Shown here piece by piece: positions 15,001 to 18,000 of a stretch of 64,000 nt of DNA. Position numbers: made by a program. Numbering within the stretch: position 1 is the first letter of the stretch; each line of letters starts with the position of its first letter. The DNA lies in NCBI RefSeq assembly GCF_054482595.1, contig NZ_CM137008.1; one strand, written 5' to 3'.

Positions 15001-18000
15001 GTAAGATCATGATTGACAGCGCGTCAGGCACACTGCCTGACGGCACCGTCTTTTCTATCCCCGACCAGGACGCACTGCCCGATCCGCTGCACCCGCAAAA
15101 TTTTCCGGACGAAAGAAGCCGCAATATTTACCTCGCTCTGCCGGTCGCCAGTGATGTGAGAAATGAAATCAGCGACGGGCGGCGAATCGGGCGTTACCGG
15201 CTGAATTATGCCGATGTCCGGGATCTGCATTCAGAAGAAGGCGACGCGCGAACACTGACGCTGGGACAACTGACGCCGCGCATTATGAGCGGTGCAGAAG
15301 ATATGAGTGCCTATATTACGCTCCCGCTTTGCCGTATCAGCGATCGCCATGCCGACGGCTCCCTGACGCTGGATGACGATTTTATCCCCTCCTGCCAGAA
15401 TATTCAGGTCAGTAAGAAACTGCGTGTTTATCTCAAAGAGGTACAGGGGGCCATTGGCGGACGGGCAAGCGATCTGGCAAACCGTATTGGCTCTCCGGCG
15501 CAGAGCGGCATCGCGGATGTGGCGGAATTTATGATGTTGCAGTTGCTTAACCGTAACCAGACCAGGTTTACCCATCGCGCCCGCCGATCCCAGCTCCACC
15601 CGGAAGATTTCTACCTTGATCTTGCCGGGTTGCTGGGTGAACTGATGACCTTTACAGAGCCGTCACGCCTGCCCTGCCCGCTTGATGTGTATGATCATCA
15701 TGACCTGACCAAAACATTTAAAACACTGTTACCGGAAGTCAAACGGGCGCTGCATACCGTACTGTCGCCAAGAGCGGTCAATCTGCCGCTGCATCTGCGT
15801 GACGGCATCTGGCAGGCCGATGTTCATGACTCGGAACTGCTACAGTCTGCCACCTTTGTACTGGCCGTGGCAGCAAATATGCCTGTCGATCAGATCCAGC
15901 GTCAGTTTATCCAGCAGTCGAAAATTTCCTCGCCGGAAAAAATCCGCAATATGGTCAGTGTGCAGATCCCGGGTATTCCTCTGCGCGCACTGATGGTGGC
16001 CCCCCGCCAGCTTCCCTACCATTCCGGGTTCAGCTATTTCGAACTCGACAAGAGCGGCCAGGCCTGGACAGAAATGGCTGCCGCCGGGGCCGTTGCACTG
16101 CATGTATCCGGCAGTTTCCCGGATCTGAACATGCAACTGTGGGCGATAAGAGGGTAAGACGATGGATGAGGGGTCACTGTCTCTGCCACCATTTACCGGA
16201 TACGACGAAAAAAGCCTGCGCGACTACCATCTCGCGCTTCGTGGCAACAGCCTGAATCCGATGATCGACGCGGCGACGCCGCTACTCGGTATGGTAATGC
16301 GCCTTTCCACCATGAACAGCCAGACGATGCCGGAGCATCTTTTTGCTCAGGTGGTGACAGATGTTCAGGCCGTGGAGCAACTGCTTCAGGAACAGGGCTA
16401 CGAACCGGGCGTGATTATCTCGTTTCGCTACATCCTCTGCACGTTTATTGATGAAGCGGCGCTCGGTAACGGCTGGTCGAACAAGAACGAGTGGATCAAG
16501 CAGTCATTGCTGGTCCATTTCCACAACGAAGCCTGGGGTGGCGAGAAAGTTTTCATCCTGCTGGAGCGCCTGATCCGTGAACCCAAACGTTACCAGGATC
16601 TGCTGGAATTTCTCTGGCTCTGTTTTTCTCTGGGATTTCGCGGGCGCTACAAAGTGGCAGTACAGGATCAGGGGGAATTTGAGCAGATCTACCGCCGTCT
16701 GTACCACGTTCTGCATAAACTGCGCGGCGATGCCCCTTTCCCGCTGTTACACCAGGACAAAAAAACCCAGGGCGGGCGTTATCAGCTCATCAGTCGCCTG
16801 ACTGTTAAACATATTTTTTGTGGTGGCGTTGTCGTGCTGGCGTTGTTTTACCTGTTCTATCTGTTGCGGCTGGACAGCCAGACGCAGGACATCCTGCACC
16901 AGCTAAACAAATTACTTCGATAAGGACGTTTATGATCCAGATTGATCTTCCCACGCTGGTAAAACGGCTGAACCTGTTCTCCCGCCAGGCGCTGGAGATG
17001 GCCGCCTCAGAATGTATGAGCCAGCAGGCAGCGGAAATTACCGTCAGCCATGTGCTTATTCAGATGCTCGCCATGCCACGCAGTGACCTGCGGGTTATTA
17101 CCCGCCAGGGCGATATTGGCATGGAAGAGTTGCGCCAGGCGTTGACGGTAGAGAACTACACAACCGCCCGTTCTGCGGACAGCTACCCGGCGTTTTCCCC
17201 GATGCTGGTTGAGTGGCTTAAAGAGGGCTGGCTGCTGGCGTCGGCTGAGATGCAGCACAGCGAACTGCGCGGCGGCGTGTTGCTGCTGGCCTTGCTGCAT
17301 TCGCCGCTGCGTTATATACCGCCTGCTGCCGCCCGGCTGTTGACCAGCATTAACCGTGACCGTCTGCAACAGGACTTTGTGCAGTGGACACAGGAGTCGG
17401 CGGAATCAGTCGTGCCGGATGCAGACGGTAAAGGCGCAGGCACACTGACGGACGCCTCTGACACCCTGCTTGCCCGCTACGCCAAAAACATGACAGAAGA
17501 CGCCCGTAACGGCAGGCTAGACCCAGTACTGTGCCGCGACCACGAAATCGACCTGATGATCGACATTCTCTGCCGCCGCCGTAAAAACAACCCGGTGGTG
17601 GTGGGCGAAGCAGGCGTGGGTAAAAGCGCGCTGATTGAAGGGCTGGCACTGCGCATCGTGGCAGGCCAGGTGCCGGACAAACTGAAAAACACCGATATCA
17701 TGACCCTTGACCTGGGCGCATTGCAGGCCGGGGCATCGGTGAAGGGTTAGTTTGAAAAACGCTTCAAGGGGCTGATGGCGGAGGTCATTTCCTCTCCGGT
17801 GCCGGTCATTCTGTTTATCGACGAAGCGCATACCCTGATTGGCGCGGGCAACCAGCAGGGCGGGCTGGATATCTCCAACCTGCTCAAACCGGCGCTGGCG
17901 CGCGGCGAGCTGAAAACCATCGCCGCCACCACCTGGAGCGAGTACAAAAAATACTTCGAGAAAGACGCCGCCCTGTCGCGCCGCTTCCAGTTGGTGAAGG

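Follow-up and report, generated by a model that had tools for sequence, protein, structure and literature searches.

The DNA studied here is a 64,000-nt stretch of contig NZ_CM137008.1 (assembly GCF_054482595.1), referred to below as the window, whose positions serve as coordinates throughout. Pfam searches place a complete type VI secretion system (T6SS) island around tssL on the + strand of the window, in the order tssB, a 74-aa open reading frame (ORF), tssC, tssE, tssF, tssG, tagH (FHA), tssJ, tssK, tssL, tssH (clpV), vasI, tssA (vasJ), tssM, vasL, and hcp. Upstream of this operon, hcp, vgrG, and an Rhs gene lie on the − strand. The boundary of the island is a tRNA-Asp gene, beyond which dnaQ, rnhA, and other core genes are found. 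Our subject is the TssL protein of this system and the presence or absence of a peptidoglycan-binding module that could anchor the secretion machine to the cell wall.

The island is the aspV island of Escherichia coli known as T6SS-2, one of the commonest genomic islands of E. coli. Window segment 14000–20500 is carried by 2930 of 5426 complete E. coli genomes, as judged by megablast, and the first 40 kb of the window differ from XH990 (NZ_CP019359.1) by one mismatch. T6SS-2 is the sole T6SS in enterohemorrhagic E. coli (EHEC) O157:H7 and O55:H7, and its published traits are an FHA protein, two tssA-like genes, two hcp genes, and an rhs gene after vgrG (PMC10711316; PMC12981562).

An earlier note on this stretch had described TssL as a 253-aa protein with a single C-terminal transmembrane (TM) helix and no OmpA/Pal-like extension, and the ORF, the Pfam and NCBIfam matches, the hydrophobicity profile, and the colinearity with Vibrio cholerae VasF all bear this description out. 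PF09850 is the sole Pfam match of the protein (E = 1.1e-57, 195 bits vs a cutoff of 27). Its NCBIfam matches are confined to DotU/TssL models, with TIGR03349 at E = 1.5e-63 (214 bits vs a cutoff of 90). Long-form TssL models of 432–552 profile positions are matched by their N-terminal part alone (for example, 181 bits vs a cutoff of 520), and NF005444 is covered at positions 40–266 of 438. TssL combines the DotU domain, one C-terminal anchor followed by few residues, and a place in a T6SS cluster with tssK, tssM, and tssJ, which are the features of the short form. An evolved or specialized TssL carries an OmpA/MotB-like domain after the TM segment; here, PF00691 gives no match and 16 residues follow the helix. 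The Prokaryotic Genome Annotation Pipeline (PGAP) names the product "type IVB secretion system protein IcmH/DotU" since the match to NF038228 (122 bits) exceeds the 50-bit cutoff, and this label is misleading for a TssL gene within a T6SS cluster.

A peptidoglycan-binding module was sought in the rest of the island at three levels. Across all annotated genes that run from Rhs to the final ORF ahead of the tRNA gene, Pfam gave no match to OmpA, PG_binding, SPOR, or LysM families (E of 0.01 to 0.1). The unannotated island ORFs of at least 80 aa (n = 63) matched no peptidoglycan-binding Pfam family either, and yielded one irrelevant weak match, to DUF3105. Finally, all 1243 stop-to-stop segments from the six frames of the window were searched with phmmer and hidden Markov models, using as queries TagL of enteroaggregative E. 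coli (EAEC) strain 042 (L003:21945-23675) and Pal, OmpA, and MotB of K-12. The best E-value in the window was 0.22 for the single-sequence queries (0.54–0.57 for TagL), 4.2 for the profile search, and 0.26 for leave-one-out profiles. As a control, each OmpA-like domain in turn was left out of the profile, and the remaining three then retrieved it, at E = 4e-15, 8e-17, 6e-17, and 3e-4. Neither a TagL (SciZ) homologue in the six frames nor, across annotated ORFs, the 63 unannotated ORFs, and the six frames, a cluster-encoded OmpA-like or PG_binding_1 protein of the TagN/TagP/TagW kind was found. The absence of an OmpA/Pal/MotB-type module from the window is a solid negative.

These searches also cover the operon itself, for which the earlier note had reported no peptidoglycan-binding gene between tssL and tssM and no tagL-like gene in the operon. 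Both statements hold: the three intervening genes, tssH, vasI, and tssA (vasJ), are free of such domains in Pfam and NCBIfam, and the six-frame search for TagL, Pal, OmpA, and MotB had a working control. TssM is full length with a terminal IcmF_C domain and is therefore not a TagP-like derivative. VasL, which we take to be TagA-like, consists of ImpA_N, one hydrophobic segment, and the VasL domain. None of the four proteins that the note had singled out as possible carriers (TssL, TssM, VasL, and the VasI-like protein) yielded a peptidoglycan-binding domain. Features of the locus are collected in the table.

Table. Positions of tssL, its parts, and neighboring genes in the window
Feature	Position	Strand	Evidence or remark
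tssJ, outer-membrane lipoprotein	14299–14823	+	PF12790 (E = 1.2e-23); TIGR03352
tssK, baseplate subunit	14826–16157	+	PF05936 (E = 2e-142)
tssL (icmH/dotU family), 253 aa, short canonical form	16162–16923	+	ATG-start ORF; same coordinates in PGAP (XH990), WP_000343294.1
DotU cytoplasmic domain, aa 33–234	16258–16863	+	Pfam PF09850
Single C-terminal TM segment, aa ~213–237	16798–16872	+	sole stretch with a Kyte–Doolittle 19-mer mean >1.6
16-aa periplasmic tail (predicted topology), DSQTQDILHQLNKLLR	16873–16920	+	conserved; far too short for a peptidoglycan-binding domain
tssH/clpV pseudogene, GAG to TAG at 17748–17750 (E273*)	16932–19670	+	translation; PGAP "internal stop"
vasI/tagO, predicted periplasmic accessory protein	19667–20410	+	no peptidoglycan-binding domain detected
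tssA (vasJ)	20415–21827	+	PF16989 and ImpA_N
tssM, full length, IcmF_C	21936–25370	+	Pfam; TIGR03348 (E = 5e-284, positions 2–1167 of 1168)
vasL: ImpA_N, TM segment, VasL domain	25381–26730 (also 25381–26791)	+	Pfam
hcp, second copy (Hcp1 of the EHEC paper)	26757–27236	+	PF05638; PMC12981562
Etse4ori-like effector: lytic-transglycosylase fold, embedded degenerate LysM	27257–28153	+	
Etsi4-like DUF1311/LprI-like immunity protein	28156–28605	+	PF07007 (E = 0.0019); PGAP DUF1311; L007 synteny; PMC12981562

Two further candidates were considered and set aside. The lipoprotein ORF at 29084–29884, a possible Pal/Lpp-like protein, gave an 18-bit match to Lpp/OprI over residues 5–41, below the 43-bit cutoff, and no OmpA-like signal in the six-frame search. 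The mltD gene (33264–34622), which encodes an SLT domain and two LysM domains, lies ~3 kb past the tRNA-Asp boundary, beyond dnaQ and rnhA, and belongs to the core genome; its nearness to the T6SS island was judged coincidental.

Comparison with known systems places the window TssL beside V. cholerae VasF (VCA0115, PDB 4V3I). Residues 20–252 of TssL align with residues 25–257 of VasF (E = 6.5e-56), and since the alignment runs up to the last of the 257 VasF residues, both proteins end at the same place. They share a DotU domain, one C-terminal TM segment, and a short tail of the form ..D(I/V)L.QLN..L, with total lengths of 257 and 253 aa. The gene order of the V. cholerae cluster, tssJ-tssK-tssL-clpV-vasI-vasJ-tssM-vasL, is presumably the same as in the window. 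The two differ in genus, in the lack of an annotated vasH regulator between clpV and vasI in the window, and in the state of clpV, a pseudogene in the window.

The other characterized arrangements depart further from the window locus. EAEC Sci-1 likewise encodes a short, C-tail-anchored DotU protein (TssL, SciP) next to tssK, with weak sequence similarity to the window TssL (3U66, E = 9.5e-4), but a 576-aa TagL (SciZ) with an OmpA-like peptidoglycan-binding domain is encoded directly downstream of its tssL (L003:21945-23675). In the window, by contrast, clpV follows tssL, and no tagL homologue occurs in the window or in the identical genomes listed. The evolved or specialized TssL proteins (Pseudomonas aeruginosa TssL1, Salmonella; PDB 7THW, annotated as OmpA-family) are homologous to the window protein in their N-terminal DotU domain (7THW, E = 1.3e-19), whereas their periplasmic OmpA-like extension of ~150–170 aa is wholly missing from it.

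The short form is a property of the whole family. Each of the best 120 TssL homologues (60–98% identity) matches PF09850 and none matches a peptidoglycan-binding family; they come from Escherichia, Citrobacter, Enterobacter, Salmonella, Hafnia, Yersinia, Photorhabdus, Rahnella, and other genera, and three of them are chimeric calls with another T6SS family in addition. An alignment of the window TssL with VasF and 102 full-length homologues (104 sequences) shows a tail of 5–26 residues beyond the membrane helix, with a median of 17, and the mean identity of this tail to the window TssL exceeds that of the TM segment (0.76 vs 0.64). The tail motif QTQDILxQLNxLL is better kept than the helix, VasF included, and this pattern of sequence conservation suggests that the tail may make a specific contact. 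A short TssL is the invariant norm of the V. cholerae-like/E. coli T6SS-2 family and not peculiar to the window locus. As a separate observation, the aai/Sci-2 cluster of EAEC 042, the third E. coli T6SS type, contains a short DotU gene (L002 24891-25481; 591 nt, ~196 aa) and no annotated OmpA-family gene, so a missing peptidoglycan-binding gene is not unique to T6SS-2.

We consider it very probable that the window TssL is the canonical short form of a V. cholerae-like T6SS, a family without a peptidoglycan-binding module, in which the complex is held by the TssL-TssM-TssJ chain. In characterized systems, the cytoplasmic DotU domain of TssL docks the baseplate and binds TssM, and by homology, the window protein would do the same. 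TssL would be a C-tail-anchored inner-membrane protein, and the inner-membrane helices of TssL and TssM, the TssM periplasmic domain, and the outer-membrane lipoprotein TssJ would together hold the complex across the envelope. Passage through the wall would probably rely on a borrowed housekeeping lytic transglycosylase (LTG), by analogy with MltE, the housekeeping LTG used for T6SS wall crossing in EAEC (PMC10433429). Reviews call peptidoglycan-binding modules accessory and describe housekeeping LTGs as the usual route through the wall (PMC10433429; PMC8253398). Secretion of Hcp2 and KatN by the same T6SS-2 has been reported in EHEC (PMC12981562; PMC5363993), which we count in favor of a machine held by TssL, TssM, and TssJ.

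Three points weigh on the other side. In EAEC Sci-1, the only system tested, TagL is described as anchoring the machine by binding peptidoglycan (PMC8253398), so other families may need anchoring as well. A novel, unrecognized peptidoglycan-binding fold could escape domain searches. In addition, tssH is a pseudogene in this strain, and function cannot be assumed.

If anchoring is required, it could be supplied in trans by a chromosomal housekeeping protein of the OmpA/Pal/MotB family recruited to TssJLM. The earlier note had suggested that an anchor, if needed, would come from another component or from elsewhere in the genome; the reasoning is sound, but the question is not new. A published account notes that a peptidoglycan-binding gene is missing from a few T6SS clusters, raises the question of how these work, and points to OmpA- or Pal-like proteins from other loci as a possible answer (PMC8253398). 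Proteins of this family are present in E. coli K-12, among them Pal, OmpA, and MotB, and MltE offers a precedent for "domesticating" a housekeeping enzyme. On the other hand, the periplasmic tail of TssL is just 16 aa, and the sister genomes checked lack TagL, the dedicated partner. We regard a trans-acting anchor of this kind as unlikely.

The distribution of tagL among the E. coli genomes bears on the same point. EAEC tagL was matched by megablast in 118 of the 5426. With a chimeric blastn query that joined window tssK-tssL to the first 1350 nt of tagL (the OmpA-like part being left out), XH990 and the other 100%-identical genomes listed were matched at exactly one place, the T6SS-2 locus, and the O157:H7 and O55:H7 genomes listed were also matched at one place; overall, 2813 genomes were matched, with 76 extra places. 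Because tagL is rare and the sister genomes show a single place, a borrowed TagL is not a general solution. Another chimeric query, tssL-tssH with tagL, was uninformative, as 5425 of 5426 genomes were matched and the sister genomes gave three places each, presumably owing to housekeeping AAA+ paralogues of tssH such as clpB.

The predicted periplasmic protein VasI/TagO is the most plausible candidate for an island component of unrecognized fold that tethers the machine to the wall or envelope. VasI has no peptidoglycan-binding match in Pfam or NCBIfam, and a VasI profile searched against PDB sequences gave no matches. Its structural model (pLDDT 69, moderate confidence) predicts an all-β core, unlike the α/β OmpA-like fold, and its match to MotY would most likely fall in the MotY N-domain, not in the OmpA-like domain (residues ~200–286). 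MotY is a flagellar T-ring protein. A literature search on the function of VasI/TagO gave nothing specific. We rate a tether of this kind in the island as highly improbable. A related idea, a family-specific tether formed either by VasI/TagO, with a predicted β core like IalB and probably like the MotY N-domain, or by the 16-residue TssL tail (QTQDILxQLNxLL), also seems very unlikely.

The island does encode one member of a LysM-bearing family, from the ORF at 27257–28153, and here a role in the assembly of the machine has to be weighed against a role as a toxin. The protein has the lysozyme/LTG-like fold and the conserved catalytic Glu of the Etse4 family. LysM (PF01476) is matched in 52 of 64 members of its own family (best E = 5e-12), and the best Foldseek matches of its model are LysM domains, with a root-mean-square deviation of 1.0 Å over 43 residues; for the E. 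coli protein, Pfam finds no LysM at E up to 1. As a wall-remodeling or wall-binding assembly factor, instead of or besides a toxin, it would resemble the specialized LTGs that are common in other trans-envelope machines (PMC10433429), and its place after vasL and hcp is kept around a 42%-identical homologue in another enterobacterial T6SS locus (L007, from a sequencing-run assembly), where the order vasL, hcp, effector, LprI-like gene is repeated. Against such a role stand the degenerate LysM, the lack of any hydrophobic N-terminal segment in the protein, the low-GC cargo region in which the gene sits, and the DUF1311/LprI-like gene directly downstream, whose product has a hydrophobic, signal-like N-terminal segment. 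Moreover, the EHEC homologue Etse4, a LysM protein, shows toxicity only if targeted to the periplasm, and Etsi4 neutralizes it (PMC12981562). An assembly function is, in our view, extremely improbable.

The EHEC Etse4/Etsi4 pair and the window pair occupy the same island and the same place after hcp. The effector ORF is uninterrupted in the window and in O55:H7, whereas the EHEC copy is split by a nonsense mutation. In the ORF at 27257–28153, the antibacterial effector published for EHEC as Etse4 is preserved intact; it is a toxin and not a structural anchor. PGAP splits this uninterrupted ORF into a "partial" fragment and a second, hypothetical protein. At the island edge, two low-GC ORFs without family assignment follow, at 28602–28958 and, on the − strand, 29084–29884. 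Possibly additional immunity genes or orphans, they code for one product of 118 aa whose N-terminus is signal-like and another of 266 aa that contains a lipobox-like LLAGC motif.

Two lesions affect the machine itself. The tssH stop codon (E273*) falls within the first AAA domain (GASVKG*FEKRF), where O55:H7 CB9615 retains GAG; among the best 60 genomes listed for the tssL-tssH segment, 16 are at least 99.7% identical. In vasL, a 1-nt insertion near 26713 relative to CB9615 replaces the last ~25 aa, giving 449 vs 469 aa, and PGAP flags the gene as "frameshifted". CB9615 carries different lesions, with tssC flagged for an internal stop and tagH as frameshifted. The damage in both genomes is in line with what has been published on the degeneration of T6SS-2 in E. 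coli (PMC12981562; PMC10711316). As read from these sequences, the T6SS is probably impaired in the window lineage: given the tssH stop and the vasL frameshift, the machine may not be fully functional there, and the question of how it is anchored in this strain may be moot.

A further irregularity lies near the start of the operon. The 74-aa ORF between tssB and tssC (7927–8151) is a partial, diverged duplicate of TssC (residues 50–102), with 34% identity, a pairwise E of 2e-8, and a weak Pfam VipB match. In the annotations of XH990 and CB9615 its product is a hypothetical protein, and duplication or recombination at the 5′ end of tssC seems to have left it behind.

Overall, these analyses favor a T6SS-2 machine held by TssL, TssM, and TssJ, and a dedicated wall anchor would be dispensable for the T6SS-2/V. 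cholerae-like family. That some T6SS clusters lack a peptidoglycan-binding module is already known (PMC8253398). Three points had escaped the earlier note: the family-wide norm of the short form, the effector from a LysM-bearing family, and the lesions in tssH and vasL. Those who use the T6SS of this strain should be aware of the tssH pseudogene and of the frameshift in vasL, and the sole member of a LysM-bearing family in the island, being an effector, is not to be mistaken for an anchor. Beyond correct annotation, the TssL observation itself matters little, and the T6SS literature treats the workings of clusters without a peptidoglycan-binding module as a minor question.
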